NCBI GenBank assembly: GCA_032718475.1
Contig: JAUCBJ010009135.1
Span: forward strand, 62,001-126,000
DNA length: 64,000 nucleotides
Reading direction: 5' to 3'
Source of the DNA: Nemertoderma westbladi
Lineage: Eukaryota > Animalia > Xenacoelomorpha
The notes beneath the pieces were generated by a model. That model ran no database searches and was not told where the DNA came from. It saw only the letters and a program-made list of their open reading frames with translations. Both the position numbers and the translations under genes were made by a program. Below, one piece after another: positions 7,101 through 40,427 of this stretch. Numbering within the stretch: the stretch's first letter is position 1; the number at the start of each line of letters is the position of its first letter.

Positions 7101-7831
7101 CCTGCCTTCCGTACTGTATTGACGTATTTTAGGTAGCCTTGAGCTTTACTCCTGCCTTCCGTACTGTATTGACGTCATTTTAGGTAGCCTTGAGCTTTAC
7201 TCCTGCCTTCCGTACTGTATTGACGCATTTTAGGTAGCCTTGAGCTTTACTCCTGCCTTCCGTACTGTATTGACGTATTTTAGGTAGCCTTGAGCTTTAC
7301 TCCTGCCTTCCGTACTGTATTGACGCATTTTAGGTAGCCTTGAGCTTTACTCCTGCCTTCCGTACTGTATTGACGTATTTTAGGTAGCCTTGAGCTTTAC
7401 TCCTGCCTTCCGTACTGTATTGACGTATTTTAGGTAGCCTTGAGCTTTACTCCTGCCTTCCGTACTGTATTGACGTATTTTAGGTAGCCTTGAGCTTTAC
7501 TCCTGCCTTCCGTACTGTATTGACGTATTTTAGGTAGCCTTGAGCTTTACTCCTGCCTTCCGTACTGTATTGACGTATTTTAGGTAGCCTTGAGCTTTAC
7601 TCCTGCCTTCCGTACTGTATTAACGCATTTTAGGTAGCCTTGAGCTTTACTCCTGCCTTCCGTACTGTATTAACGTATTTTAGGTAGCCTTGAGCTTTAC
7701 TCCTGCCTTCCGTACTGTATTGACGCATTTTAGGTAGCCTTGAGCTTTACTCCTGCCTTCCGTACTGTATTAACGCATTTTAGGTAGCCTTGAGCTTTAC
7801 TCCTGCCTTCCGTACTGTATTGAAGCATTTT
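1118..7831. repeat. 50-bp tandem satellite, ~134 copies
   Basis: Unit gacgtattttaggtagccttgagctttactcctgccttccgtactgtatt repeated head-to-tail with few recurrent variants (cgt/cgc, act/gct, gcc/tct). Confidence 0.99.
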
Positions 7832-8146
7832 AATAATTAGTGCGAGGCTGTATATTTATTGTAACTATACACTTAGAATAATTAATAACCCCGCTTGCAG
7901 TTTGCACTTAGCTCTCATACTTGCATCCACTACCAACTAATTGCGGCTGTTATATGGCGTAGTAACTACAGTATGTAAGCAAAGGTTTACTGATTATAAT
8001 GCAGTATATACGTAATATTGCAATTCAATTAATTAATTGTAAAATAATTTGAAACAAAATTAAAGCTTTGGTGACTAAAACTGTAATACAGTGCCGGTAA
8101 AGAAAGAATTTTTATTAAATTTAATGGCAATTTGATTAATTAAATA

Positions 8147-9421
8147 ATGGGTTTGATTAAAGCAAGTCTTTATGTGGCTATTATTGCGTTGCTGGCCAAT
8201 GTATTACCCGTTCTGTGGAAATTATACACAGCAAAACCACTCCGGGTGCACGTTGATGGGGCGGTTGAGGAATCCTTTAGAGAAGTTGAGTCGATATTCC
8301 GTGGATTTTTCGAGGAAGGTCGAGTTATCGGAGGGGCGTCTTTCTCGGTGTACCATCGGGGTAGATTGGTGGTGGACCTGTGGGGCGGCTACACTGACGA
8401 GATATCACCATGGCGACGCGACACTCTGGGCCTATTCTTTAGTTCTACTAAAAGTACCGCGGCTATTTGCGCCAATATGCTAATCTATCGAGGCCATATG
8501 AAACCTGATGACTTAGTAACGAAATACTGGCCGGAGTTCGGTAATAACGGTAAAGGCAACGTCACTGTGCGAATGTTATTGAACCATCAGGCAGGGTTAT
8601 CCCACACCGAGTCACCAATTACAGAGGAAATGATACTGGAAGAAAGCGGACACTCATTGGACATACTGTTAGCCAATCAGCGACCAGTATCGGAACCCGG
8701 TGGACCTGCGGTTTACCACGCAATCACCTATGCGTGGGTGGTAAATGGGTTAATCCGACGGGTGGACCCACAAGGAAGAGACATCGTTCGTTTCCTTCGT
8801 GAGGAGATAACGGAACCGATGGGAGTTGAGTTCCATATCGGGTTACCGCTCAACGAATCCTACCGATCCGTACGGCTCTATGACTACATCTCCACGAAGG
8901 ATCAACTCTATATGCTACGAACTCTGCTAACCGATGCCAACGCCAGGAATTTCATGATGAAACTATTCAGTGGTGAGTTCGCTAATACCAGTAAAAACAT
9001 ACCGGGGATTATAATGGGGGCTCCAAACTCTCCATATTCCCGCCGTCTTCCAATCGGTTCCATGTATGGGTTCACCACGACCCGGGATTTTGCCCGCATT
9101 ATGGACCGTTTAGCCAACCCTGGAACCGATCCACTGCTTCCTAAGAGTTACAGCGACGGTATATTCGCGCAGGGTGCGCCTGGGTTTAGTGGTCGTTTCT
9201 TCGCTTTGGGTTTTTTGAGTAAACCGCGTCCCCTTTCGGACCATGGACCAGAGTTGCTGGGACACCCCGGTTATGGAGGTCAGGAAGCTTACTTCGACAC
9301 GACAGAGGGCATTGGGTATGCCTACACCCAGAACTCCTTGTATAAGATTGCCATGCCCAACATAGAAGCTCCTTTGTTGAAGAAGCTACTAGAGGCCACG
9401 TACGGGGCCTTGCGAAAGTGA
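8147..9421 (+). CDS. Serine beta-lactamase-fold hydrolase (LACTB/lact-2-like, penicillin-binding-protein family) with N-terminal signal anchor; intronless
   Basis: 424-aa ORF with catalytic SxxK (FSSTK), LLNHQAGL, catalytic Tyr (AVYHA), GHPGYGGQ, VVDLWGG and YWPEFG motifs typical of the family; hydrophobic N-terminus; A at -3 and G at +4 of the ATG. Confidence 0.93.
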   Translation: MGLIKASLYVAIIALLANVLPVLWKLYTAKPLRVHVDGAVEESFREVESIFRGFFEEGRVIGGASFSVYHRGRLVVDLWGGYTDEISPWRRDTLGLFFSSTKSTAAICANMLIYRGHMKPDDLVTKYWPEFGNNGKGNVTVRMLLNHQAGLSHTESPITEEMILEESGHSLDILLANQRPVSEPGGPAVYHAITYAWVVNGLIRRVDPQGRDIVRFLREEITEPMGVEFHIGLPLNESYRSVRLYDYISTKDQLYMLRTLLTDANARNFMMKLFSGEFANTSKNIPGIIMGAPNSPYSRRLPIGSMYGFTTTRDFARIMDRLANPGTDPLLPKSYSDGIFAQGAPGFSGRFFALGFLSKPRPLSDHGPELLGHPGYGGQEAYFDTTEGIGYAYTQNSLYKIAMPNIEAPLLKKLLEATYGALRK

Positions 9422-12924: not shown

Positions 12925-13026
12925 TAATATTCTAGAAGCATCTTTATGGTCGTCTATTTTATTTATCATGGCGATTTCCATTTCATTAAAGCTTAAGAAT
13001 AGATCAGGTGATCAGTCATACATACC

Positions 13027-16000
13027 CTAGACCATTGAAGTCCTTCTCTCTTTTATAGGAAGATTACTCACTATCACAAGCTCATCTGTTCGAATTATTG
13101 ATTTATCCCTTGCTTTTGCTTCGAGTTTTGCTACAAACTTCGAGGGAGCTTTGGTTACAATAATAGAGTCTGACGATGCCGTTTTGGATAAGCCCATTCT
13201 ATTCCATTTTAACTCTCTTTCTCGGATATTTGTTGGTTTGCCGTTTTCATCAAAGAATGAAACTTTAACATTATTCGGTTTATCTTCGTAGGTTGCAGAT
13301 AGCGATAGTTCTGTTGGTGATTTCCAAGAGTATTCAATGGTAACTGCCTTATTGCGAGTTGTCATTTCCTTTTCTATACAATTCATACTTATTTTGTCAT
13401 CGGATACTGTGTAACATCTCAAATAGTATGTGGTTGATGGCTTCAGATTATCAATAGAGTATTTATCTTTGATTTCCCACCCCCTTGACCTTTCTTTTAT
13501 ATAATCAAGATATCGGTAAGAATAAGTTAGCAAATCCATATGATATCCTGAGAAAGTCGTTTTAGGTCCTTCTACCCAAACTTCAACCGAGGTTACTCCA
13601 GCTTCAAAGCGTAAAGACACAGGAGGTTCAGGTATCATAGTTACTTGACGGTCACATGATTGCCTGTTTTTGATCCTGAAATAATCATCATTAATTGTTA
13701 GAAGCGGTAATGATATGGCTGATATAATATATCCTGTGCCTGGAATGTTGTCAGTTAGAGTGTGCACACATTCTGATTGCTGTAAAACTTTGGTAATTGA
13801 ATCACCTGTAACTGTGTTCTTTACAATCAATTCAAATTCGTTTGAATTATTGGCTGGTTCCCATGATAATCCAATATCTCTTGAATTCTCTACTTCACAT
13901 TCAAGGTTTCTTGGTGGACCAGGAGAACGAACAACATTAATAAATGTTGGGGGATCACTATCAGTTTCAAGAACACCTTTCAAGGTGGAAGACATTACGG
14001 ATTTTACATAGAAACGCATAATTATCACAGAAAAATCAATCGAAATCTCTATGGATGTTTCTGTTGTATTCATTGTAAAATTAACATTATCAAATGGGGG
14101 TTCTGATTGAGCAATTTTATAATAATTAACTTCACAGTTTGGTTTATCCCAATTTAGAAGTAATTTACCACGAGGCAGCTCCTGGATAGCTAAACCAGAT
14201 GGGTTTAATGGTTTAGCAATAAATTGATGGATTATATTCTTACTGAATTTATCAACAACTTTGTTGTATGCGCGTATATTTATAGAGTATGTATGTGATG
14301 GTTGAGTTACAAGTGAGATATGATCACTTTCAATATCAGTAATATTTTCTACTATGGAATTGTTCGTGAGGCAATTGATTTCAGCTGTATGGATTATAGA
14401 TAATGATACTTGAGATTCGCACTTCTTTCTGGGTTGTTTCCATGAAATTACTGCCATTTGATTATCATCATTATTGTAGAATTCATCTACAACAAAATCG
14501 TATGGACTTTGTACTTCTCGCACAATTATTTGCCCCTCTGTATAGGCAATTTCATCTCCATTACTATTCCCAAATCTAACCTCATATACAGTTTCATAGT
14601 CATCGAAGTAACTTTCAAGATTTCTGGTTTCACATCCATTAGTTGCAATAGGTACAGGGCTTATAGTTTTCCATTCCAACTCCCCCTGAGAACGGTACTG
14701 TAATATGTATTCAACAACTGCCCATGTCGATTTTTTCCATTTTGCAAACACTTTTCCATCTACTTCTATAATTTCAAAATTATCAGGTTGACCGGGCTTT
14801 GTAATAAATTCAAGTGTTACCGCTCTGCCTTTTACATCATTTTCACCGACAGGAACTAATTTAGCTGTATATTTAGTACCTGGTTGAAGGTTTGTTAATG
14901 AATATGACTTACAAGGGAATATGATATATTCGTTGGTTCTCTCGTCAATGATTTCTATATTTACACCTTTGTAATACCCAGTATTATATTCCCATTGAAT
15001 GACACAAGATTCCTTGGTAAGGTCACAGACATAAACATTATCTACAGGAGCAGGCGGAAGGGTAAGCATCTTATTAACATGCTGCCCTTCTTTCATATTA
15101 TCTTCTGCATGCCTAGCCAAGCACGAAACACCAACCTTATAACAGTAACCAGGTTCAATTTGTGATAAATTTATTCTGCATTTATTTTCTGTATCTTCCA
15201 GTTGAAGAGTTTGTGACAGTGGTTCTTCATGAAGCTTACTAACATAGACATTAAAGTGGGAATAATATGAATTCCGATCATTTGGCTTCCGCCATTCTAA
15301 CTCAATTACTTTTGATGCAATAAATCTGAGTTGTAGCTCTTTAGGGATTGGTGGTTCTTCGATAAACTCAAAGTCACAATAATTTTTCTTTACATATGTT
15401 TTTCCAGTTATGCTATTAGTTCTATATACCGTCTCAACTCGATATATTGATAGAATTCCACGTGCGGCGTCATTGTAAGTAAATGTTGTTGTATCACTGG
15501 ATAACCTTGAAGCTGTAGAAATTATTTGTAAATTTTTACCCTTAGATCCATGATAGATATTATAGTACGATATTTGACAATATGGAGTTATCCACTTTAA
15601 ATTTGTTTTTAATCTTTCATTAGTTGAACTAAATTTTAAATCTTTTACAGGCAGTGGTGAAGACAAGGCTATATGTTCTAAACCTTGACTGATTGCCCCT
15701 GATGAACTCACAGAAAACACTACCAGCTTGTATAATGTTGATGGTATAACATTTAATTCATATGTTGGATCTGATGTAATTATGTTTTCTGATATTTTCT
15801 GATATTCTTTCCCATTTATATGTAATCTGAAAACATTGATGCTGTAATGATCACATAATCCCTTAGTTGGTTTCTCCCAGGTAAATGTTATACTTTTATT
15901 TTCAGGTTGTGACGAAATATTAGTCATCTCAGATATATTACAAGGTGGATCAGGGTTGCAATCAACATGCATGATATCCGAATATTCTATATTACCATAT

Positions 16001-19000
16001 TGAGACTGTGCTCCTACACTTATATCATAAGAGCTACCAGGTGTCAAATTCTTATACAATTCTAAATTATGGATTCTTGTTGGAGAAATTTCTCTTTTAT
16101 TTTCTGTACCATCTTCTGATATATATTTAAATATGTAGTTTTTAACTTTCCATTTTTGTTGTTTCAACTTGAGAATATTCTTTTCAATTCTTATTATTGG
16201 AGCAGATGCATTGGTATTAAATTCAACATTATTACTTTTGTCACTTTCTTTGTTATATTCTCCAACTGTCGTCATGTATAATATATACTGAGTTCCTGGA
16301 GATAAATCTTCTATTATAAAATATTTAGAGTTCACATTATCAATATTTATATTAATTAATTTAATATTTTGTGATTCTTTTTCTTTAAAATATATATAAA
16401 CTCCAAGAACCATTGAATCGCTATACTCCCACGATATTCTACATGATGTTGCTGAGATATTATCAACAATGATGTTTAAAGGACATATTGATTTCACATA
16501 GAAGGTTCCAACATCTGAATGTTCACTTTCAACTTGGTCGATTCCTTTGTATTTTACAATGCTTGTAACATACCACTTGTATATTAGTCCTGGTCTTAGA
16601 TCACTTAAGAGATGCTGTCTTGAAAGCCATCGTTTTTCTGCCCAAATCACAACCAAAGGAAATAATTCTGATGAATTTCCTTGTTGGAAGTAAACAGCTT
16701 GATGAGTAAACTTACCCTTTGGAAAATACCAGTTTAAACTAAAACTATTTGATTTACTAATTGCCATGTTTTTATCAACTGTTGGTGCACAAGGTCTAGT
16801 TGCAAAATCTCCCAGATTATGGATAGTCGACTTTTTGTTTTCTTGTTTATATTCATAGATTGCTAATATTGAAATTGTGTAAACTGTTCCAGGAACTAAA
16901 TCTGTAATATGATAGTTCTTTAACTTACTATCAATATAATATTCTAAACTTTCTTCTTCTCTATTGCCAGTTCTTTTAGTTTTATCATATTTTTCATAGA
17001 TTGAAATTTGGTATCTGGTTACTTTACATGGGGCATCACCAATTATCACATACACTGCTGTAGTTGTTGTATCAGCAACTGAAACCCAATCAGGACATGT
17101 TGGTGATGTAAGTAGCCTTATTTCTTGTGGAATACTGCTGATGTCAAATTCGTCAATGTAGGATGCTACATTAATACAATAACATGTTGATGGTTTACTG
17201 GGAAATACATATTTACATTCACTAATAACTTTATCTAGGGCAATGTCTTGTAAACCATCTATTAATACTTCATAAAATTTTATTATGAAAGATATAATTT
17301 TAGGGTTTGAAGCCCAAGATACAGAAATATTATTGCAATCTTCATATATTTTGATGTCAGATGGAGGTGGTGGTGGGTACTTGAACTCCACTGGTGAAGA
17401 GCAGGCTACAATTCTTTTCTGCAGAGCCTCACAACATACTCTTATGTAGTAAATTTTTCCCATCTCTAAAAATTGCTCTAAGCCACTTGCTGTATTATTT
17501 TTATACAATAAAATATTGTCTGGGACCATTTGCCAAAATGTTTCTTTCTCAATTTCTTCTATAAATGGTTCTGTTTTTTCTAGTTTTATATATTTATCAT
17601 AGTTTATATATTCAATATAGAGTTTATTTGGCTCCCAATCCATTTGATTCCACATGACACATACTTCTCCATTATGGAAACTGCCTATTGAAACTAAAGT
17701 TGGTGGTTCTGGCATCATGATGACTGGAATTTTCATGGGATCACTATGTTTTGAAGAGGCTCCTTTTGTTCGTATTGCGACATCATATTGCATGCCTGGA
17801 ATTAAATTGTCAACTTTATATTCACATAAATCTTTTTCAACAGGGATAATTCGATTAAACTCTTTCTGTACAAATCGATTTTCTGTAATTTGTATTTCGA
17901 ATCCGGAATTGTTTCCTGTGGGTAACAGCCATTGTAATACAAAAGATCGTGATTCAATCACCGATGGCAATGGAGACGTAGGATAATTTGGTTTTGTTTC
18001 TAAGACATATGGAGGTGAAGGATTGCTTACAAACTTCTCAATATCATGGCATTTTACTCCATAAATAGTTATGTTATATAAATATCCTGCTTCTAATTCT
18101 TTTAGTTCATGAGAATATATATTTTCACACAACTCATACTTCATGGTTTTATTTTTTTCAGTATTCATTATACTTACAATCTGATGGTCTAGAATTGAAC
18201 TATCCGGAATGTTCCATGATAGAATGTGATAAGGGTCTTCATCTGTAATTGTTATGTTAGTAGGAGGTAATGGACATGTAGATATGGAAATGCTTGATGA
18301 TGCTTTACCTTGGTAATAATTGCCCTGAGTATCAAACATATCTAATATACTATAAATAGTATATGTGTATGTCATTCCTGGTTTTAGATTGGTAACATTT
18401 TCTGTATTTTCTAAGAAATAGTCTGAGTTGATTACATTATCATCTTTTATGCACTGTGATCTGTATTTTATCGTATTTAAAGGGGAAGTATTCCAACGAA
18501 TTACTACAGATTCATGCGTATTACTCTCCTGGGTTACATGTTGAGGTCTCATAGGATTTGACATAAAGCGCAGTCTTGTTGGAATGCTTTCTATGTTCAA
18601 ATTTGTATTAATTGTTGAAATCGAAACAATATATATTGTAGATTCTTTAGGTTCAAATATATAACTATTTGCATCTATATTTTCCTGATACACTACTTTC
18701 GACTCAGAGATTTCCATTAATGATATTATAAATGAGTCAAAAGCTCCTAAATGAGGTATTGACCAACAAATGTTACAGAGCTGTTTTAAATTATTTGAAT
18801 AGTGATAAACATAAATATGTGGAGGGGCTAGTGGAATGTGGATAAATTCAACTGGTTCTGAATAAGCTAATTGATATGGCTGAACACTACCTTGAGCAAC
18901 TAGCCGTATATTGCCAAATATTCCAGGCAGCAGTAAGTGGTTTACTATGACTTTGCATGCTCTAAAATCAATATTATCCAACAATGTTTCCCATGTTCCT

Positions 19001-22000
19001 TCACATACTTGTGATGAAGGTGAAAATCTCAACTCAATTATGTATGATTTCACATTCCAATCTGGTTTGGTCCATTCAACAGCAACATGATTTTCATTAT
19101 TATTTATCCATACATTTTCTATTGGTTCTGGAAATGTGCAAAAATAAACAGGTTGTGTATTATCACTTTGTATACCGTGTTCAACAAATGAGGACAATGT
19201 TGCAGAATACTCTTGTCCAGGTTTAAGTATATTAGGGACTTCCAAATATGTTTGACCAGAGCAACTTTCTACCATATAAATGATTTTATCAATATGCATA
19301 ATTGTAATCCTATTGAGGATATGCCTTCCTCTGGGCAATGTCCATGAAATGCTACATGAGCGCGGGTTTATATTTGTAATTGTAACATCAGTAGGATATA
19401 ATGGTATAGTTGTGAATGAAACTGGCTCTGAAGGAACACTGGAACTATTACCAATATCATCATATTCAATCTCACAAACCACAGATGCAGTATATTTAAA
19501 CCCAGGAGATAGCTGGAAAATATTATATTCTGTGGCATTGGATGGCACATCAATCAATATGTGGTGTTCTGGAAATTTAACATTTACTTTTTCAAGTTTT
19601 ACCTTCTGAAAAGTACATTTCTGCTGTTGGTCCCACTTTAAAGTGTAGCAGTGGGGTGTAATTAATACCTTAAGGTTACTAGGTGACTTTGGTCGTGTTA
19701 TGCATATGATTTGAATCGAATTTTCAGATGTCAAATTGTAATGATAATTTAATTTTTCGCAGAACGCTTTTGTGATGCAAACAGCTTTAATCCGGATTAT
19801 ATAAGGTATTCCGGATTCTAGGTTTGGAATTAGCTGATTGGTTGTAACATTCGATAAATTTCCTTCTAAAGTTTCCCATTTTAATTCATTTTCTGCAAAA
19901 TGTTTCAGTTTTGCATATTGTATAACTGTATCACTTACATATGAGCTTGGGTTTCTCCAATAAATTTCAAGCGAAGAAGATGATGTTCCTGATGTGGTAG
20001 CTTCTTGAACATGGGATGGTTCTGAAAGGGCATATATATAAGTACTTTCACTTTTTAGCTTAATATTGCTACTATGCCATGTATAGGTGGAAATTTCTAA
20101 CTTATATATTTGTGAGGGTTTACAATAAATATTATAGACATTTTTCAAGTACTCGTGTCTACTTTCTATTTCTGTAAATTCATCAGGCTTGTTTGGGTTT
20201 GCAGTAAACAATTTCAATTCATAACCATCAATATATCCTTTTGTTTGGGGAGTCCATGCAAATTTAAAACAATGACAATTATTCATCTTTGTTGCTTCTT
20301 TATCACTATATTTTTGTACGGCTATATCAATTACAGGGCACGGGTTATAAATTAGTTTGTAAAAACTGCTCGGTGCTTCAATGCCATTGATGGATTTTGT
20401 GATAAACTGCATGAAATATATATCACCAGGATGGAGTTTTTCTAAAGAGAATGAGGCTTCATTATTGGTTTCATATACATTTATATCTATATCTGTCGCA
20501 GCACTCTCTGTAAATTCATTAACCCAAGGCGCATACTTTGCGATATATTCTTTTACATCCCAATCTAGTATTTTCCAACTAATTGTTCCAATATTTTTAT
20601 CATAATCAATTCCAAAGTGTATATTACTAGCTGGTTCTGGTAGTGTAATGAAATTTTCTCTTTCACTTTCATCACTCACTAAATCTGACATTCCTATTGT
20701 TTGAATATATGTGATATACATTGTTCCTGGTTTCAAAATTGAATCATCCATATTAAACATATTGGAGTAAGTCTCTTCATTACAAAGTATGGAATTGTTA
20801 CAGAGTATCGTCACTAAAAACTTTTTACTATGCCCATCTGGTTTGTCCCATGAGATTAAACCAGATCGAGGAGAGGGAGTATGAATTGTGGGTTTGTCAG
20901 GTGGAACTGGTTGAACTGTAAGTGTATACCATGTTTTATCACTTATAGCATTTCCATATTCATAATAATCTGCAACACAACTAATATTGATATTGTAGTC
21001 ATTGCCTGGTTCCAGATTAGTTAGCACAAAGGCAGAATCTTCTTTTGGTATTTTAATATCAGGCAGCCAAATACCACTATCTATTTTACTATAACAAAGA
21101 AGCTGAAAATCATGTTTTGATTGTGTTGGTATAGTCCATTTTATGGTATATTCATACCTGTTTGAATTATTACCACTTATATTGAACAGAGGGAGAGGTT
21201 TAGTTACAGCAAAAGCATTTGTGCTAGAATCTAGTATGGCTTCTGTGGTAATGTAACAAGATGTAATATTTATTTTATACAAACATCCAGGAGATAAGCG
21301 TTCAAAGAGATGAGAAGTGATAACTTCATCGATGGTTGACTCTTGTACATTTTCTCCATTAACTTCATCAATATTAATTTTAAAGTAACTTATTGGACAT
21401 AATGGTCTCTGCCACTTGACTTCCATAGAATTTGTTGATATGTTTTCAAATACGATATCAGTTGGTGGAAGAGGCTTTGATGTAACTGATATTTTAACTG
21501 GATTTATACAAAACAAGTTCACCAAACTGTTACAAGATAAAATATTCATAAAATATGTAGTAGATGGTAGACATGCAAATTTGTGATTTGTTTCTCCTAT
21601 TACAATTCTATCTAATTCAGTGGCAATTGTTTCATCATCAGATAATTTTGATAATTCAATACAGAAATTCATATTATCATATATTCCTTTACTAGGTCTA
21701 TCCCAAGTAAGATTTATTTCGCGAATTAAATTGGCATCTACCTCTACTGCATTACAATTTCTCACAGGCAATGGAGGATATTTTAGTTCTCTGATTGTTG
21801 AAAAGGCAATATCTCCATTTGTTGCAAACGCGCCTAATCGGATAAGGTATATGTCTCCAGGTACCAGTTCATCAATACTGAAAATATATGTGACATCATT
21901 TATCATATTTGTTGATGATAATTGCATGTCACCCCATATAGGACCACATTCCAATTCTGACAAACTTTCATATTTATATTTTCTTAATATTTGACTATCA

Positions 22001-25000
22001 AAGGTAATGTTGTTAATAGTGCCATTTGATTTTGTCATGTAAGATATGATATATTTGTCTACTTCCCAATCCACAGATTCAACTTCAATTTTAATTCGGC
22101 CATCATCATTTATTAATATTGAAAATTCCTCAATTGGTTCTGGTGGTGTAAATATTTCCAATTTATCACTATAATCACTCATCAATGATTTAAATACTGA
22201 CCTTACCATCACTTCATACCTTGTACCAGGAAGAACTTTCACCAGCATATTACTATCAAGAGCTTCCAATTCTCTGATATCATTTTCTGATGTCATTTGT
22301 ACTTTATACTTATCACATTTTCCCTCTGGGATCGTCCAATTAAGTTGAACCTCTCTTGGATCATTTGTAGAGATTTCTGGAATCATTGGAATTGCTGGTG
22401 TTGTGTCGAACTTGAAGAAAATTGATTTATCACTGACTTGTTCACCAAAGTCATACTTTGCATCATATGTATGGGAAACCTCATAGGAAATTCCTGGAGT
22501 CAAGTCTGTGACTTTCTTTTCATTTATACATGCAGATTCAATTGTAATTTCTCTTTCTGAATTGTCAGCAATGTCACTTTTAATAATATATAATTTTTGT
22601 CCAGTAACATAACTATTCTCCAAGGGTATGTTTCTCCATTGAATTTTATAAGTTTTATATTCTTCATTAAACCCATAAATTTCTTCAAGTTTCATTGGTT
22701 GTGCTATAAATTCTTTATTAGATTCATCAAATTTCGGAATAGCTTCTTCATTTCTCTGATAAACTGTTCTTATCCTAATGGAATAAGCAAATCCTGGCCT
22801 CAGGTTATCTATTATGTATGAAAGATCATTGTATCGCGGTTCCTTTACTATCCATTCTTCCATGTTACAATGTGAGTGATATCTACAATAAGCAATTTCA
22901 TAATAGCTCACATTACATAATGGTTTTTTCCAAGAAATGCCCATTGTATTCATTGATATATTGTCAATCTCAATACCCAATGCTTTTGCTGGGCTAGTCG
23001 TAAATTCATCTTCAATGGGCTCACTTTCTAAATTAAAATCATCATTGCAGCTAAATAATTTAATTTTGTATATGGTTGATGGTTCAGGTACAAATGTATA
23101 TTTTGTATTAAATAATTTCCTGACCCTGTTATCTTGCCAGATATTATCATTGTTAATATCAATCATTATTCTCAATCTATAACTTTTACATATACCTTGT
23201 TCAGGCTTTTCCCACGTAACTGCCACCTGCTTGCCATCTGTGGCATTTGTGTCACAGCTAACACCAAGGGAAGACATTATAGTCTTTGTTTCTTCTGTTA
23301 TCGTTAAGATCCGTGGTGGCAGAGGAGGATACTCATATAATATGTTATCGCTTAATGCAGATAAGCCGGATCCTGATTTTACTTGAAGCATTAATTTATA
23401 TATGTTCCCAGGCACCAGAAGCTCATTAATATTTTGTATACTTTTGTTATCATGCGAAAACTTTGCTGACTCCAAAGTTTGCCAAGATATTTCATCCCTG
23501 CCATCTACCACAGAATCATCCGCATTCACATCCATTTCAAATATAGATTCCTGTTTATGGAATTTCAGTTTATATTTGTTTGGACTCCAGTCTAAGTCAT
23601 CCCAGACTAGATCTTTATTGGGTAAAACCTTAAGACCTTTTGGTGCCTCAGGGTTTGTGGTAAATTTGCAATGGGTTACATTTTGACTACATTTATCAGC
23701 TGGTCCAATAGTTTGCACTGACACAATGTATTCAGTTCCAGGTAGAAGATTGGTTAAATATGATTCAAAGTTACATTCACAAACCTCATAATCTATTTTT
23801 CTAGCAATATTTGGTGGGTCAATATTTTTCATGAGTGTTACATTAAAACTTGTATAATTACCCTGCAACTCAGACCAACTCCACAAAGCTGTTGCTGATC
23901 TTGCTCTAATTGACTCTGATGGAATTTCTATACAGCGTGGGGCCTCTGGAAAAACAGAGAACTGGTGGACATCCGATTTGTCACTGTAAACTTCCGGCAG
24001 ACCATCATGTGCAGCTACACGTTTACACCAAACCTTATACTCATATCCAGGTTCCACATCAAGAGTTACAATATTTTCATTACTGGGAATTGATACTGGA
24101 ACTCTGTGTTCCAATTCATCAATTCTTTGCAAATAACAAAGTTGTTTAGAGCAGAAATAATTAGACTCTGACCAAGAAATTGTGTGTTTTGAAGTCGAGC
24201 AATTATCACCATATGAATTCAATTCCTCTGGTTTTTCTGGGAAAGTTGAAAATACCAACATTTCCGAATTTTCACTGTTATATATTTTTTTGTTATAATC
24301 TTTGTTCACAATTTTGGCATATACAAATGCTTCATATTGATAACCAGGCAACAGCTTGGTTAGTAAATATGAATTATTGCCAAGACAGTCTTCTATATTA
24401 TATTTCTTATTATTTATTTTCTCAGTGTATGTGACAATGTAGTGAACTTCTTCACCTGACTCTGAGTTTTCCCAAACAAGTTCAACATTTTCTGAAGTTA
24501 ATGAGCCTTCAACAATATTCAATTTTACTGGCCTTTGGGGACAAGTAAAACAGTTAATTTCCTCAATTGAGCTTTTCACATATTCATTAACAATATCCAT
24601 TTCTCTGTTCACTTCATTCTCAATTATAGTTTCTGTCCAGATTCTTATTACATATTTTGTACCTGGCTTTAATTGTTTAAATTGGTGACTACTTGTTGTA
24701 CTATCCAAAAATTCATCTGGTTGTTTGTCAAATTTCACAGATTTCTGATGGTTTTTAACTTGAGCAGCGCCATTCTCAGTTTTCTCCCCAATTCGCAGAC
24801 CAAACCGAGAAATAAAAGTATCTTCAGGAATATCCCAAGTAATAGAAATATCATTAGCAGCTGCACTAAATGTTGGTTCCCTTACAGGTTCTGGTAACAC
24901 TGTATAGTGTAGGGATATAGGGATACTAGAAACAGAATCTCTAATATCAATGTAAGCCTGAGCCTCCAGTGTAAATGTGTATGAGTATCCTCTCTGTAAA

Positions 25001-27396
25001 CCATTTACTGTATATTCTTCAACATTCCCAATGTCACCAAGGACACCTGTAGGCATATTACCTTTCAATCCTTTATTAACTGGTTTGCAGTTCAAAATAT
25101 ATCCCTTAGTTAATATTGAGGTTGATTTCTTCCATGTCAATATTAATGAAACTCCCTCAATTCTGCTACTGAAATCAGAAGGTTTTGCTGGCCGAGTCCA
25201 ATGAATGGCCATTGTCGGATCAGACTGAACATTTCCATTTACAGCAACGACGAAGATAGCATACCATTGTCCCTCTTCCAGTGAGCCATCTGCACCAACT
25301 TTAAATAGCTTTCCATCTAAATTATCACTTGTGGGTTCGCTATTAACTTCTTGAAGTGTATGCTGGCAACGCTTTAAACAAATATCCAGTGTTGGAGGAA
25401 TTTTACGACTAATTATCTCATGTGAAAGAGATTTAGCTAGAATGTGATACACTTCATAATGAGTAACTGATGATGATAAATCCCACTGAACGTCAATTGT
25501 TGAAACGTCATGATCACAAATTCTTACATTTTCAGGAGGTGGAAGACGCTTTGTCATAAATGTACCTTTAAGTGCTTCAACATTTGGCTTTGTTGAGAGA
25601 TTCTTACCACTGCAAGCTGTCAATTTAAAATTATATTTTCGTTTGGGGTCAAGGTTTTGAACTTTATAGGAAGTTTGTCCTTTATTTAAAACTATATTTT
25701 CAAGCTGGAGATTGGTTGAAGATTGGTGATGAAGTTGCGACTTACGAAGCTGATGTGGTGATGATTGACTGGTCCCTTGTCTCTGAAGAATGCGCCTCTT
25801 AGTAGGGGATGTTTGTAATGCAGGATTATGAGTCTTACTAGACTGCTGAGTATTCGTTTGAATTTGATTAATTTGAGTTGAGTGGCTATGTTCTTGCTGG
25901 GAACATTCTAACATATAATGTGTAAATTCCCCTCTGTTTGGAGGACACCACTTTAAATCAATAAAGTTTGATCCAATTGTATCTGCTTCCATACCAATTG
26001 GCTGATATGCATAAGTATGTTCAGAAAGAGAAATACAAGCCATTGAAGTTCCATTGAGAATGGAAGACACTGAGATAGTGTATTCCTTACCAGGTTCTAA
26101 ACCTTCAAATGAAGCTGTATATTCATCACTTGCATCTATTCTGCGGAATGAGTTGTGGCTATCAGGAGGTGTTAAGCTTACTTCATAAGATGTAAGCTTT
26201 GCTGATGTTTTGTTTGTTGATTTATGTATTAAAGCTGCCTCCCATTTAACAATTATTTTTTCTTCTGTCATTTTTTCTGATAAAAATATAACATTCTGAG
26301 GAGTCCATAGAGCCTGGAACTCATCATTAAGAAGTGTGAAAATCTTCAATGATGCTGGAATTCCACAAGATTGAGCAACTAAGTCAAGAAGAAATAGTAT
26401 ATCTTGGCCCTGGGTGTCATCCACATTTTCAATATAAGTGTAATCCGTTTTGCAGATTCGCATTTGTAGCAAGCTTTTGTGTAAATGTGAACGAGCTTTG
26501 GAAAAGGTTAAAATGGACCAATCATCACTGCAAGATATACCAAATTTTTTGTACACAGCTAATTGTCGAGAAAATGGTCGGAGATGTAATGCAAAACACC
26601 AAAATAATGAGTATAAGTTACAGAGGAAGTGAATCACAAGGATAAGACACAAGATTATACTTACGTAGTGGTAAAATTTGAGCTGTGTGCTGGAGCATGC
26701 GAATTGTAGATTGGTTGCACTTGGTGTTGATGCAAATGGGTTCAATGGTATGGTGCACAATGCATCGTTATCAATAGTAGTTTGATCGGCAGCAATCCAA
26801 ATATTAAATCCAAAGATAGAAGATCCAAATATGATTTCAAATACACTTTTCCACACATATGCTCGGTAAATTTTACTGCTCCTCTTTAAGGATTCACTCA
26901 TTTCTTTGCACTGTCTTTCCTTCACAAACACATCTCCAGCCCTGCCTTCTTCCAATGAATTTAGTCTTCGGGTTGAATCTGCATCAGTACAGTTTAGTGA
27001 TGGTTCTACAATTAAGTTATAAAATAATTCTAGTTTATTTCGGATAGAAGACCTCTTTAAACTAAATTTATCTACGATGAGTAGAAAAAGAGATTCAATT
27101 ATCATTATGTATGGAAGATATTGTGTAACAAAATTCAATAAGTCATTTTTGCATTTCCCCTTTGCATAATCCAATATACCATCGCTAATTTCAATGTTTA
27201 TGTCATCTAAGTGTTCACCCGAAGGAACGCATTGCATGTCATCTGATGCAAAAAATTTACCTGCAAGCGCAATTAATGAGACAATAAAGAGACCTTTATT
27301 TGCGAAATCCTCTATTGTGTCATGTGTTGCTGTGAAGATCTTGGTGTGAGGACTCTCTTCCCATAATGAATGCGCCAATTCCTCAACAGTTGTCAT
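13027..27396 (-). CDS. Giant LRRC8/pannexin-like 4-TM channel domain fused to ~43 fibronectin type III domains (4789 aa, single coding exon)
   Basis: Uninterrupted 14.4-kb ORF with CACCATG Kozak context. aa 1-350 align by eye with the LRRC8A pore domain (DDMQCVP~DKMICLP; DYAKGKC~NYVDAVC; QYLPYIMII..KLELF~KYFPYLVLL..KLEHF; IYRAYVWK~VYRLYMRQ; QDILFLLDLVAQ~NDFAFMLHLIDQ). From aa ~365, repeated FN3 signatures (P..P.NL, .SW..P, Y.I.Y, L.PG..Y.I.V). Confidence 0.93.
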   Translation of the reverse strand: MTTVEELAHSLWEESPHTKIFTATHDTIEDFANKGLFIVSLIALAGKFFASDDMQCVPSGEHLDDINIEISDGILDYAKGKCKNDLLNFVTQYLPYIMIIESLFLLIVDKFSLKRSSIRNKLELFYNLIVEPSLNCTDADSTRRLNSLEEGRAGDVFVKERQCKEMSESLKRSSKIYRAYVWKSVFEIIFGSSIFGFNIWIAADQTTIDNDALCTIPLNPFASTPSATNLQFACSSTQLKFYHYVSIILCLILVIHFLCNLYSLFWCFALHLRPFSRQLAVYKKFGISCSDDWSILTFSKARSHLHKSLLQMRICKTDYTYIENVDDTQGQDILFLLDLVAQSCGIPASLKIFTLLNDEFQALWTPQNVIFLSEKMTEEKIIVKWEAALIHKSTNKTSAKLTSYEVSLTPPDSHNSFRRIDASDEYTASFEGLEPGKEYTISVSSILNGTSMACISLSEHTYAYQPIGMEADTIGSNFIDLKWCPPNRGEFTHYMLECSQQEHSHSTQINQIQTNTQQSSKTHNPALQTSPTKRRILQRQGTSQSSPHQLRKSQLHHQSSTNLQLENIVLNKGQTSYKVQNLDPKRKYNFKLTACSGKNLSTKPNVEALKGTFMTKRLPPPENVRICDHDVSTIDVQWDLSSSVTHYEVYHILAKSLSHEIISRKIPPTLDICLKRCQHTLQEVNSEPTSDNLDGKLFKVGADGSLEEGQWYAIFVVAVNGNVQSDPTMAIHWTRPAKPSDFSSRIEGVSLILTWKKSTSILTKGYILNCKPVNKGLKGNMPTGVLGDIGNVEEYTVNGLQRGYSYTFTLEAQAYIDIRDSVSSIPISLHYTVLPEPVREPTFSAAANDISITWDIPEDTFISRFGLRIGEKTENGAAQVKNHQKSVKFDKQPDEFLDSTTSSHQFKQLKPGTKYVIRIWTETIIENEVNREMDIVNEYVKSSIEEINCFTCPQRPVKLNIVEGSLTSENVELVWENSESGEEVHYIVTYTEKINNKKYNIEDCLGNNSYLLTKLLPGYQYEAFVYAKIVNKDYNKKIYNSENSEMLVFSTFPEKPEELNSYGDNCSTSKHTISWSESNYFCSKQLCYLQRIDELEHRVPVSIPSNENIVTLDVEPGYEYKVWCKRVAAHDGLPEVYSDKSDVHQFSVFPEAPRCIEIPSESIRARSATALWSWSELQGNYTSFNVTLMKNIDPPNIARKIDYEVCECNFESYLTNLLPGTEYIVSVQTIGPADKCSQNVTHCKFTTNPEAPKGLKVLPNKDLVWDDLDWSPNKYKLKFHKQESIFEMDVNADDSVVDGRDEISWQTLESAKFSHDNKSIQNINELLVPGNIYKLMLQVKSGSGLSALSDNILYEYPPLPPRILTITEETKTIMSSLGVSCDTNATDGKQVAVTWEKPEQGICKSYRLRIMIDINNDNIWQDNRVRKLFNTKYTFVPEPSTIYKIKLFSCNDDFNLESEPIEDEFTTSPAKALGIEIDNISMNTMGISWKKPLCNVSYYEIAYCRYHSHCNMEEWIVKEPRYNDLSYIIDNLRPGFAYSIRIRTVYQRNEEAIPKFDESNKEFIAQPMKLEEIYGFNEEYKTYKIQWRNIPLENSYVTGQKLYIIKSDIADNSEREITIESACINEKKVTDLTPGISYEVSHTYDAKYDFGEQVSDKSIFFKFDTTPAIPMIPEISTNDPREVQLNWTIPEGKCDKYKVQMTSENDIRELEALDSNMLVKVLPGTRYEVMVRSVFKSLMSDYSDKLEIFTPPEPIEEFSILINDDGRIKIEVESVDWEVDKYIISYMTKSNGTINNITFDSQILRKYKYESLSELECGPIWGDMQLSSTNMINDVTYIFSIDELVPGDIYLIRLGAFATNGDIAFSTIRELKYPPLPVRNCNAVEVDANLIREINLTWDRPSKGIYDNMNFCIELSKLSDDETIATELDRIVIGETNHKFACLPSTTYFMNILSCNSLVNLFCINPVKISVTSKPLPPTDIVFENISTNSMEVKWQRPLCPISYFKINIDEVNGENVQESTIDEVITSHLFERLSPGCLYKINITSCYITTEAILDSSTNAFAVTKPLPLFNISGNNSNRYEYTIKWTIPTQSKHDFQLLCYSKIDSGIWLPDIKIPKEDSAFVLTNLEPGNDYNINISCVADYYEYGNAISDKTWYTLTVQPVPPDKPTIHTPSPRSGLISWDKPDGHSKKFLVTILCNNSILCNEETYSNMFNMDDSILKPGTMYITYIQTIGMSDLVSDESERENFITLPEPASNIHFGIDYDKNIGTISWKILDWDVKEYIAKYAPWVNEFTESAATDIDINVYETNNEASFSLEKLHPGDIYFMQFITKSINGIEAPSSFYKLIYNPCPVIDIAVQKYSDKEATKMNNCHCFKFAWTPQTKGYIDGYELKLFTANPNKPDEFTEIESRHEYLKNVYNIYCKPSQIYKLEISTYTWHSSNIKLKSESTYIYALSEPSHVQEATTSGTSSSSLEIYWRNPSSYVSDTVIQYAKLKHFAENELKWETLEGNLSNVTTNQLIPNLESGIPYIIRIKAVCITKAFCEKLNYHYNLTSENSIQIICITRPKSPSNLKVLITPHCYTLKWDQQQKCTFQKVKLEKVNVKFPEHHILIDVPSNATEYNIFQLSPGFKYTASVVCEIEYDDIGNSSSVPSEPVSFTTIPLYPTDVTITNINPRSCSISWTLPRGRHILNRITIMHIDKIIYMVESCSGQTYLEVPNILKPGQEYSATLSSFVEHGIQSDNTQPVYFCTFPEPIENVWINNNENHVAVEWTKPDWNVKSYIIELRFSPSSQVCEGTWETLLDNIDFRACKVIVNHLLLPGIFGNIRLVAQGSVQPYQLAYSEPVEFIHIPLAPPHIYVYHYSNNLKQLCNICWSIPHLGAFDSFIISLMEISESKVVYQENIDANSYIFEPKESTIYIVSISTINTNLNIESIPTRLRFMSNPMRPQHVTQESNTHESVVIRWNTSPLNTIKYRSQCIKDDNVINSDYFLENTENVTNLKPGMTYTYTIYSILDMFDTQGNYYQGKASSSISISTCPLPPTNITITDEDPYHILSWNIPDSSILDHQIVSIMNTEKNKTMKYELCENIYSHELKELEAGYLYNITIYGVKCHDIEKFVSNPSPPYVLETKPNYPTSPLPSVIESRSFVLQWLLPTGNNSGFEIQITENRFVQKEFNRIIPVEKDLCEYKVDNLIPGMQYDVAIRTKGASSKHSDPMKIPVIMMPEPPTLVSIGSFHNGEVCVMWNQMDWEPNKLYIEYINYDKYIKLEKTEPFIEEIEKETFWQMVPDNILLYKNNTASGLEQFLEMGKIYYIRVCCEALQKRIVACSSPVEFKYPPPPPSDIKIYEDCNNISVSWASNPKIISFIIKFYEVLIDGLQDIALDKVISECKYVFPSKPSTCYCINVASYIDEFDISSIPQEIRLLTSPTCPDWVSVADTTTTAVYVIIGDAPCKVTRYQISIYEKYDKTKRTGNREEESLEYYIDSKLKNYHITDLVPGTVYTISILAIYEYKQENKKSTIHNLGDFATRPCAPTVDKNMAISKSNSFSLNWYFPKGKFTHQAVYFQQGNSSELFPLVVIWAEKRWLSRQHLLSDLRPGLIYKWYVTSIVKYKGIDQVESEHSDVGTFYVKSICPLNIIVDNISATSCRISWEYSDSMVLGVYIYFKEKESQNIKLININIDNVNSKYFIIEDLSPGTQYILYMTTVGEYNKESDKSNNVEFNTNASAPIIRIEKNILKLKQQKWKVKNYIFKYISEDGTENKREISPTRIHNLELYKNLTPGSSYDISVGAQSQYGNIEYSDIMHVDCNPDPPCNISEMTNISSQPENKSITFTWEKPTKGLCDHYSINVFRLHINGKEYQKISENIITSDPTYELNVIPSTLYKLVVFSVSSSGAISQGLEHIALSSPLPVKDLKFSSTNERLKTNLKWITPYCQISYYNIYHGSKGKNLQIISTASRLSSDTTTFTYNDAARGILSIYRVETVYRTNSITGKTYVKKNYCDFEFIEEPPIPKELQLRFIASKVIELEWRKPNDRNSYYSHFNVYVSKLHEEPLSQTLQLEDTENKCRINLSQIEPGYCYKVGVSCLARHAEDNMKEGQHVNKMLTLPPAPVDNVYVCDLTKESCVIQWEYNTGYYKGVNIEIIDERTNEYIIFPCKSYSLTNLQPGTKYTAKLVPVGENDVKGRAVTLEFITKPGQPDNFEIIEVDGKVFAKWKKSTWAVVEYILQYRSQGELEWKTISPVPIATNGCETRNLESYFDDYETVYEVRFGNSNGDEIAYTEGQIIVREVQSPYDFVVDEFYNNDDNQMAVISWKQPRKKCESQVSLSIIHTAEINCLTNNSIVENITDIESDHISLVTQPSHTYSINIRAYNKVVDKFSKNIIHQFIAKPLNPSGLAIQELPRGKLLLNWDKPNCEVNYYKIAQSEPPFDNVNFTMNTTETSIEISIDFSVIIMRFYVKSVMSSTLKGVLETDSDPPTFINVVRSPGPPRNLECEVENSRDIGLSWEPANNSNEFELIVKNTVTGDSITKVLQQSECVHTLTDNIPGTGYIISAISLPLLTINDDYFRIKNRQSCDRQVTMIPEPPVSLRFEAGVTSVEVWVEGPKTTFSGYHMDLLTYSYRYLDYIKERSRGWEIKDKYSIDNLKPSTTYYLRCYTVSDDKISMNCIEKEMTTRNKAVTIEYSWKSPTELSLSATYEDKPNNVKVSFFDENGKPTNIRERELKWNRMGLSKTASSDSIIVTKAPSKFVAKLEAKARDKSIIRTDELVIVSNLPIKERRTSMV

Positions 27397-27959
27397 GGTG
27401 AATGGAATGGGTCGTCAATGTTAGAGATTTGCTGAACTGCTCAAAATTCACCTGCAACGTATAAAGGTATCTGAACTAAATATTTACTTTCGATTTAATG
27501 AATCAACTCATAGGTAAACGATTATGCTTGGGTAGAGAAATGTATTTACAACTTAGTAACATGATTAATCAGTTGGTATTGTTGGTTCATATGATGTAAA
27601 TACCGTCTGCCCAGCAACATTGCTATATTTGTCACATGTTGTAATTTAAGCATATTTTTAAACACTACATCAAACGATCAAGAATATTCATAGAATTTTC
27701 AAACGGTATTGAAATTATGGATATTGTAACTATGTGAAATATACCAGACTTTCTGCTGTTATATTTCACTTTGAAGTTTACCCCCATATGAATAAGGTTT
27801 TTACTAAAACCCAGGCTAAAGAAGGGGTGAATCTAACCAAAACAATAAACGACTTGGAATTGTGACTGGTTATAAGCTTTGCGGGTTATTGTAAACTACT
27901 ACTATAATCGGCTTGCTCTGCATTGAAGCTGTACATTGAGATGCTATGATGTCTTAACA

Positions 27960-28380: not shown

Positions 28381-31300
28381 ATAGATAGATTTATTTATAC
28401 ATTATGTAAAAACAATAACAAATACACCAAACAATGTACCGGTATAAAGGTATTGTCCAACATAACATATAGGATTACCCCTAGAGCTTTGCAGCTTATT
28501 TCCAAGGGGGTCCTTTATGTTACTTGGTTACAAATACAATATTACACTACGCTAACCTAAAACCAATATAAAACGTAATTACACTATGTACATGTACAAC
28601 TTTACAGAGAGCGTGACAATGTCCGACTCAACGATAAAGATGTAATGTACAGAACAATTTATTATAAAACGTAATTACAGTATAAACAGTAAATAATTAA
28701 TAAACTAATAACTTACTTTATGACTATTGTACCTATTTTTACATTTTTACATTTAACTGCAGATTTAAAAGAATGTTGATTATTTAGGTTTTTAATTTCA
28801 TTAGGCAGAGCGTTCCAATTTTTAATGCGGTTAAAAAAGAAAGTATCAGATTCAAAGGATTTACAATTCGGGAGGTAGAAGTTTGAAGCACTAGCTCTGG
28901 TACTGTAAGAGTGTGTATCGCGTACCCTGTTGAATTTTTGTTTTAGGTAATTGGGACATTTACCATTATACACTTTATGCACATGGTTAAGGCGTAGCTG
29001 CTTAACTCTACTATCTAAGTTAAGTAGTCCAGATTCAGATAAGTCATCTGGAGTTAGGTGGTGCCTAGGTTTGTAGTCTTTAATAAATCGTACTACTTTA
29101 TTCTGAGCTACTTGTAATTTACATTTAAGCTGTTTGGTTAAGCCTTCATACCAAGAAGAGCATGCATAGTCCATGTGACACTGTATTAACGAAGAGCAAA
29201 GTAACTTGCGGGAGTCGGTGTTTAAACTATTTTTATTTCTGTATAGAAACCTAAGCCTACTGTTAACTTTCGAAAAAATATTTTTCACTGTACTTTCTCC
29301 TGACAAGCAGTTATCCAATGTGGCGCCTAAATATTTAACTTCCTTTTTATTTTCAATCTTATGTCCATTACTAGTGACTTCGAACTTAGTTACCTTCTTT
29401 AACTTTCTTTTGGAACCAAACAAAATACTTTCATTCTTACCGTAGTGAATGGATAGCTTATTATCAACCAACCACTCATTACAGGATTCTAGAACTGCAC
29501 TTAACTTTTGGGAAATATGGATAGGATCTTTATGAGAGAAAATAAGAGCACTGTCGTCGGCATATAAAATGAGTTTAAAATCGGGATCTATACTACTTAT
29601 CATATCATTTACATAGCATACAAAAAGCAGAGGACCTAATATACTACCTTGCGGTACACCACAGGTAATCTCTTGTACAGTAGACTGCGATTTGCTAATG
29701 ACTACAGTTTGACCTCTGTCTGACAGGTAGGACTTGAACCAGTCTATAGAACCTACACCCATCAGGCCTAACTTACCAAGCAGAATTTCATGATCTACAG
29801 TATAGAAAGCCTTTTGTAGGTCCAACATTACCATACCAGTATATAAACCCTTTGCGTTATTACATCTAATTGTATCAGTTAAGTTAATACGGCAGGTGTC
29901 TGTAGAATATGATTTACGAAAACTGAAGTTTATTGATCAGATTTAGCCTACTAAGATGTGCCTCCAGCTGTAGAAAAACAGAACGTTCTAGAATTTTAGA
30001 TACAATACTTAAGATACTAACAGGTCTGTAATTACAGGGTTCTACTTTACTATTCTTTTTATACAGAGGAACAACCTTAGCTAATTTCAGTTCGTCTGTT
30101 ACTACATTATCTACGATAGAGTAATTAATAATAAAAGTAATAGGCACTTTAAGTACTTCAGCACCATCCTTAAGAAAACGGGCAGGTATTAGGTCTAGAC
30201 CGGTACTTTTTGAGGCTGATAGGCTAAGTAGATTTTTAAAAACGAAATCCTCAGAAACGGGTTTTAAAAATAACTTTTCTGAATTTTGTAACTTTTCTAA
30301 ATAAAAATTATTTAGAGTTTCGGACCCTATACTATATTTATTACTTGATAACGGTAACTTCTTAACTAAATTTGAGGCAACATTAGTAAAATAATTATTA
30401 AATAAATTACTAACTAGAGTATGATCATGAATCAGCTCACCGTTATCTTGCAGAACAATATTCGATTTAGATTTAAGGTTTTTATAACCTAAAGATTTTA
30501 GGGTAGACCATAGACTTTTAGGATTATCTTTATTCTCACTTATTTTGTTGTACAAATATTCAGATTTAGCTTTTTTTATTTCCCGTTGGACAAGGTTTCT
30601 ATATTTGCAGTAATTAATATAATCAGCTAAAACACAGTATTTCCTAAATTTATACAAATAGTTATCTCTTTCTCTGATATTACTAAGAATACCCGAGGTC
30701 ATCCAGGGCTCAGTGCGTTGTTTAAGACTAATTTCTTTAATTGGTGCTACAGTATTAAGTGCCTTTAGAAATATATCTTTAAAAACAGTGTACGCAAGGT
30801 TAATGTCAGCGGCCTTAAAACAGGGTTCCCAGTCAGAATTAACTAACAAACTTAAAAAGCGTCCCTTGCTGTAATTTTTCATAGACCTAACAGTTACTGT
30901 TTTATGATCCCCGAAAAAAAGATTTTTGGGTCTTTCTTGTGCAGAAAACTATAAAATGATCGCTTAGACCTATAGGTAAAACCCCAGATTGAGAAATAAT
31001 ATCGGTATTATTCCAAAGGATGTGATCTAGTAAAGTAGAAGTTTTACTGGTAGTTCTGGTAGAATCTCGAATAATTTGTTTTAAATCAAAAAATTTAAAA
31101 TACTTTGGTACTGTTTACAGATGGGGGATGCTTTGTGATGGTAACAGATATTAAAATCACCTAAGAAATATATTTTACAGTCTGACCTAAGATTACATAA
31201 AATTGTATTTTCAAAATTTTGCAAAAAATCTGATTGTTTAGGGGGCCGATATAAAGTACCGATTAAAATAGGTTTAGTTTTAGGAAGTAAAAGTTCCACC

Positions 31301-37612: not shown

Positions 37613-37757
37613 ATTTTTACCGCCTTCATTTCCTGTAGTACTATATTGGTTTTGTAGTGATTGGTATTGCTATTGTTATATTATTATTACAATATTGGTA
37701 TTGTCTGATAGTATAATCTGATGATACTGCTGTACTGTGCAGATTTCGCTTTTGATA

Positions 37758-40329: not shown

Positions 40330-40427
40330 ACAACACATTTTATAATTCTTTGTTCAATTTGTTCGGAAGATTTATTAGCAAGGGTATTTATTATTCTGAA
40401 CACCAAATATACCAAATGTGTACCAAA

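Follow-up and report, generated by a model that had tools for sequence, protein, structure and literature searches.

The closest described systems are the channel proteins LRRC8A-E (SWELL1; VRAC; PDB 7XZH, 6G8Z), chains of about 810 amino acids in which a Pannexin_like pore with four transmembrane (TM) helices and four loop cysteines is continued by linker helices after TM4 and, right behind the pore, by a folded domain of leucine-rich repeats (LRR), beginning at residue 413 of LRRC8A according to one review (PMC9399500). Reviews report LRRC8 from chordates and from Nematostella (PMC9399500) and describe its cytosolic domain as required for trafficking, with a mobility tied to gating (PMC9399500; PMC12182595), and in one model as a mechanosensor (PMC12182595). 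Whether LRRC8 senses swelling by ionic strength, by a force acting on that domain or by the two together is debated there (PMC12182595).

Pannexins 1-3 and innexins share the large-pore four-TM fold. They are not known to have a folded C-terminal array. Long FN3 tandems arranged in super-repeats occur in the A-band part of titin and in related FN3/Ig filaments inside cells, the titin periods being 7 and 11, and NOMPC/TRPN joins a channel of an unrelated pore type to a long cytosolic array of unrelated repeats, for which tethering has been shown in NOMPC.

An earlier note on the locus described here had read it as an LRRC8A-like pore followed by a titin-like FN3 filament, an architecture thought to be undescribed. 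The literature searched, in which subscription journals were thinly covered, yielded no description of a Pannexin_like+FN3 fusion, and the one paper that contains both names has them in unrelated table rows (PMC9573974); however, unnamed proteins combining this pore with FN3 domains exist in copepod proteomes.

An intact gene in a single coding exon

The window (the whole 64-kb stretch of DNA that was analysed) is animal-like and satellite-rich, with a broken LINE, and carries on its minus strand a giant open reading frame (ORF) at 13027-27396, which runs from ATG to TAG through 4789 codons, has an intron-free coding region and encodes a protein of 548 kDa, close to the roughly 540 kDa estimated earlier. 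At the window's composition, a stop-free frame of this length has a chance probability of about 1e-167. The features of the locus are as follows.

12955..12975 (approximate), minus strand: likely polyadenylation signal AATAAA, judged from sequence, about 60 bases past the stop
13027..27396, minus strand: whole gene, a single coding exon for an LRRC8-type pore, 43 FN3 domains and a 107-aa end
13030..13350, minus strand: C-terminal 107 aa, net charge +6, matching none of five repeat-class profiles
13351..24540, minus strand: FN3 domains 6-43 (aa 953-4682), a five-domain super-repeat of about 7.6 units
24541..25542, minus strand: FN3 domains 3-5 (aa 619-952), outside the demonstrated super-repeat
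25543..26304, minus strand: FN3 domains 1-2 (aa 365-618), common to the copepod family by profile and blastp matches
26305..27396, minus strand: pore domain (aa 1-364), from PF12534, a predicted model, Foldseek and VIA-align
27452..27475, minus strand: tract rich in pyrimidines that terminates in CAG 55 bases ahead of the ATG, judged from sequence to be the likely acceptor site for an intron in the 5' UTR

Taken together, the acceptor-like tract and the AATAAA would give the pattern expected of one coding exon plus a 5' UTR intron. Support for the gene at the DNA level comes from contigs of three public runs, representing two samples and two studies, one run being perhaps related to the source of the window. 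These contigs jointly tile the ORF, adjacent contigs sharing 30 bases only and no single record covering the whole gene, and the three listed indels all lie outside it. The contigs of run X5 cover scattered pieces of the ORF only. No RNA run was listed for the sequence, which is uninformative as to expression. Contigs of all three runs break near the pore/FN3 junction (26239-26352), which, with the short overlap of neighbours, would speak for a misassembly or for two genes only apparently joined. Against this, all three runs have a 114-base contig that bridges position 26304, the pore/FN3 boundary, its X1 and X3 versions being identical to the window, and a 7571-base contig covers most of the FN3 array in two runs. 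Relatives align through the junction (see below), indicating that it is ancestral and not an accident of assembly, and among 22 family loci in metagenomes, which include both single-exon and multi-exon genes, L002, L003 and L004 have pore and FN3 in single ORFs, L002 and L003 being single-exon. We regard an artefact as highly improbable.

Two peculiarities of the contigs are recorded here. The X2 version of 26239-26352 bears seven substitutions within 41 bases, five of them residue-changing and none creating a stop; it might be a paralogous copy, an allele that has diverged, or the product of gene conversion. In three runs, the depth of a 36-base contig inside FN3 domain 3 (25456-25491) is 1.6-1.9 times that of the adjacent contig, and the stretch is possibly common to another locus.

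Sequence variants were classed for 54 sites, comprising the 40 best-supported of 145 listed and the 14 of 16 in a second listing that fall in the ORF. Synonymous changes account for 22 of the 54, against an expected 21%, the other 32 being residue-changing with no stops; this set is selected and uncorrected for transition bias, and hence serves as supporting evidence only. All four classed variants in aa 1-348 are synonymous. In the FN3 rod, residue changes make up 26 of the 40 variants listed, with a pN/pS of about 0.5, a constraint weaker than that on the pore. We conclude that the ORF is an intact animal gene.

Elsewhere in the window, an intron-free ORF of 425 codons on the plus strand (8144-9421) encodes a protein of the beta-lactamase/esterase fold (Pfam E 8e-50), matched best among solved structures by carboxylesterases (E 2e-37); its N-terminus is hydrophobic and it contains the motif S-x-x-K. 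A LINE-type reverse transcriptase in two frames lies at 28713-30948 on the same (minus) strand as the giant ORF, some 1.3 kb upstream of it. Satellite arrays occupy 1120-7832, 33078-35562, 37758-40328 and 41632-62257, with units of 50, 59, 45 and 50 bases respectively, and three ORFs at 37676-40353, each about 880 codons long, read through the 45-base array.

The pore domain and the FN3 array

Profile, fold and homologues support the identification of aa 1-364 as an LRRC8-type pore domain, made up of a helix at the N-terminus, four long hydrophobic helices, one loop with C56/C82, another with C214/C234, and linker helices after TM4. A comparison with the Pannexin_like and Innexin profiles, which the earlier note had proposed, gave a Pannexin_like (PF12534) match of 42.1 bits for aa 1-379, above the cut-off of 25 (the whole-protein query scored 19.2, under the same cut-off), and no match to the Innexin Pfam family with either query. 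Hydropathy peaks at aa 31-49, 90-108, 185-203 and 247-265 coincide with the four long helices of a structure model of aa 1-469, obtained from a 58-row alignment with a mean pLDDT of 84.9, in which these helices are followed by short helices and then by the beta sandwich of FN3 domain 1. Foldseek matched the model to LRRC8A (E 8e-11), and VIA-align laid aa 4-364 over LRRC8A 3-401 with Z 20.3, rmsd 3.8 over 296 residues and 15% identity, compared to a best Z of 14.8 against pannexins. In searches of solved structures the N-terminal domain found LRRC8C and LRRC8A on top, and a profile of 18 family sequences reached LRRC8C/A with E values between 1e-27 and 1e-25, its pannexin matches being no stronger than 1e-4. 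The four hydrophobic segments and LRRC8A-like pore first read from the letters are thus borne out. So are the four loop cysteines, which are conserved in the non-gap rows of alignment A1 (C56 28/32, C82 35/36, C214 57/57, C234 53/55). The almost invariant E165 and Y180 are also kept. No second copy of the pore was found inside the window.

Four TM helices with both termini inside are predicted. A signal peptide had been judged absent, in agreement with hydropathy and with an N-terminus that aligns with LRRC8A from residue 4. The accompanying claim that no further TM segment exists holds for the strong peaks, of which there are four, but two weaker ones occur at aa 332-350, in a helix aligning with the LRRC8 post-TM4 linker, and at aa 2816-2834, inside FN3 domain 24. 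Since FN3 domain 1 begins at aa 365, approximately where the repeats of LRRC8A start (413), the array is placed on the cytosolic side by homology, and this position, already proposed in the earlier note, is predicted by profile, fold and homologues alike. An extracellular array was rejected, given the predicted four-TM fold together with a linker that aligns with the cytosolic linker of LRRC8.

Directly behind the pore, an iterated self-profile found 45 stretches that make up 43 FN3 domains (aa 365-4682), two of them split by inserts, which matches the earlier count of about 43 and represents 92% of the protein. Domain 2 contains, near aa 500-570, a basic insert rich in Gln, Ser and His. From domain 6 to 43 the best partner lies at a multiple of five for 31 of 38 domains, and the mean score of this super-repeat (52.5, against 38.1 +/- 1.1) was reached by none of 5000 permutations. 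Mean identity at lag 5 is 26% and self-similarity at the DNA level is absent, from which the super-repeat copies appear to be old. A single-sequence model of domains 12-16 had a pLDDT of 31.7 and was discarded. FN3 domains are 3.5-4.4 nm long, giving 43 of them a contour of 150-190 nm, in line with the order of 150 nm supposed earlier.

As had been claimed, leucine-rich repeats are absent: the protein contains no Pfam LRR family and no match to LxxLxLxxN. It is therefore not an LRRC8, from which it also differs in having 43 FN3 domains and 4789 residues. The description 'titin-like' is apt for the super-repeat layout, and for an intracellular position by prediction, but not for the sequence type, as the protein contains no instance of the titin FN3 signature W..P..DG[GS] or of DGG and no Pfam Ig or kinase domain, and its period is five. 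Among solved structures, one five-domain unit matched fibronectin best (E 2e-14), ahead of tenascin-R (1e-6) and titin (3e-6). Identity as a pannexin, innexin or titin was rejected on the weaker pannexin matches, the missing Innexin match, and the absence of the titin signature, Ig and kinase domains. No partner-binding motif was found in the rod, and Pfam and the repeat-class profiles recognised no anchor domain at the C-terminus. The tail has 48 N-glycosylation sequons where chance gives 47.9 +/- 6.1, an uninformative number.

Relatives and the wider family

A full HMMER scan with aa 1-369 returned 72 hits, of which the strongest had E 4e-28 and was about 31% identical. Of these pore homologues, many of which are fragments, 17 have fn3 and 12 have fn3 with Pannexin_like, and an LRR family is listed for none (one family of P0030 was not displayed). 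Thirty clusters were looked up, and the four among them that carry names are all copepod (Tigriopus, Caligus and two Eurytemora), with no annotated function. The copepod proteins, among them QQP57419.1 (Caligus), XP_023335450.1 (Eurytemora) and TCALIF_00641 (Tigriopus), are about 800-940 aa long (complete members 900-937 aa) and consist of the same pore, joined at the same junction to about five FN3 domains; some of the genes are single-exon. A Caligus sequence from a Trinity transcript assembly (P0084) aligns with aa 1-619, across the junction, at blastp E 4e-45. Copepod tail profile H1 scores 30.8 bits on domain 1 of the window's protein and 5.4 on the next best, and H2 scores 36.3 bits on domain 2 and 17.5 on the next; copepod domains 1 and 2 are orthologous to domains 1 and 2 here. 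Derivation of the super-repeat by multiplication of the copepod five-domain tail is unsupported, as the profiles of copepod domains 3-5 (H3-H5) have no one-to-one mapping onto its classes.

A tree was made from 43 of 58 aligned pore domains, 15 having been dropped for coverage below 55%; it includes no vertebrate LRRC8 or pannexin rows and is thus unrooted for the family. It contains a clade of 26 rows, to which the multi-FN3 copepod proteins belong, and one of 16 rows in which the chains stop after roughly one FN3-like domain, and the window's pore, at most 31% identical to any relative, falls between the two and outside the copepod clade, on a long branch (1.15). The 16-row clade (P0017, P0020, P0021, P0061 and others, with Eurytemora LOC111709704) forms another LRRC8-like pore group, likewise unnamed, and several of its members have an LRRC8-like PWWD motif.

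Word-index protein searches with aa 1-470 found no match at E <= 0.001 among proteins of 2633-8381 aa or of 30-2632 aa, nor did one with alignment A2 among proteins of 843-2405 aa; the latter two ranges contain known relatives that were missed, so these blanks are weak and compatible with other giants. Metagenome contigs contained no close relative of the window's protein, viral contigs no family member, the 7-10 kb of DNA downstream of L003, L005 and L007 no further FN3 frames, and the ESM Atlas no usable match to aa 1-499. With P0107 the Atlas gave nematode clusters combining ion-channel domain PF07885 with fn3 at a sub-threshold score of 0.76, a lead hinting that other channel types bear FN3 domains too.

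On this sequence comparison, pore plus FN3 defines a wider unnamed family present in public copepod proteomes, of which the window's protein is a giant variant. The fusion is not unique; the giant size, with a five-domain super-repeat across domains 6-43, was seen nowhere else in the searches made. That the giant form was found in one organism only, in a region full of tandem repeats and with a rod under weaker constraint, would fit an ordinary family member whose tail was lengthened by neutral tandem duplication and whose 38 extra domains do little. The repeats are old, yet 11 kb has stayed without stops or frameshifts and class-specific motifs are kept, and we consider neutral growth improbable.

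How the protein might work

The reading that we prefer, at about an even chance, is that six or seven such subunits build a large-pore channel for anions and osmolytes, whose FN3 tail, predicted to be cytosolic, would tether or position it and tune its gating. By analogy with LRRC8 biology, the pore domain would oligomerise six- or seven-fold in a non-junctional manner, anions and small organic solutes would pass, and the rod might be present on some subunits only, if these mix with short paralogs. FN3 domains 1-2, conserved in the multi-FN3 relatives, would stand in for the LRR gating module and exert allosteric control. Successive duplications of a block of five domains would have added the 38 distal ones, whose anatomy suggests a rod of about 150-190 nm; binding sites every 20 nm or so along it could engage a periodic partner, for instance a filament of the cytoskeleton or another membrane. 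Against this reading stand the low identity to LRRC8A in the structural alignment (15%), the weaker constraint on the rod and the lack of any partner-binding motif in it, and trafficking might be difficult for a ring built from six or seven chains of 548 kDa.

The pore might instead merely oligomerise, as a non-conducting anchor that fixes a bundle of FN3 rods to the membrane as a spacer or scaffold. Its long branch and low identity to relatives would agree with this, as would a protein that is so largely FN3; retention of the loop cysteines, E165, Y180 and the N-terminal helix, and the synonymous nature of all listed pore variants, speak against it, although a structural role could explain these as well. 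We think this alternative unlikely, and favour the conducting, FN3-tuned channel.

As a further alternative, in line with the earlier note, the rod could be anchored to the cytoskeleton and open the pore directly upon stretch or swelling. It begins where the LRR domain, the proposed mechanosensor of LRRC8, begins; the super-repeat suggests a periodic partner; and tether gating through the ankyrin repeats of NOMPC provides a precedent, tethering being a proposal here. However, short family members have no rod and the C-terminus has no recognisable anchor domain, which makes direct force gating less likely, and FN3 domains strung together by short linkers have the mechanics of a semi-rigid rod, not of a coiled spring. 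It is a rather doubtful reading. Since the copepod relatives have about five FN3 domains, a long tether is unnecessary for the family's basic role. The earlier interpretation is supported as to pore type, replacement of the LRR and a cytosolic array, and is weakened as to a 150-nm tether being the family's core mechanism, because most members have no such filament.

The LRRC8-type pore could, in the broadest and rather unlikely view, be an old animal module with interchangeable cytosolic tails that in this lineage became a tether-gated member of the LRRC8/pannexin superfamily, a large-pore channel opened by force along an FN3 filament of 150-190 nm whose five-domain repeat acts as a ruler. With the pore kept, LRR swapped for FN3, and tails that range from about one FN3 domain through about five to 43, the family offers ready-made chimeras. 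The series of tail lengths could test what is required of the cytosolic module, and the giant form could test tether gating of LRRC8-type channels.
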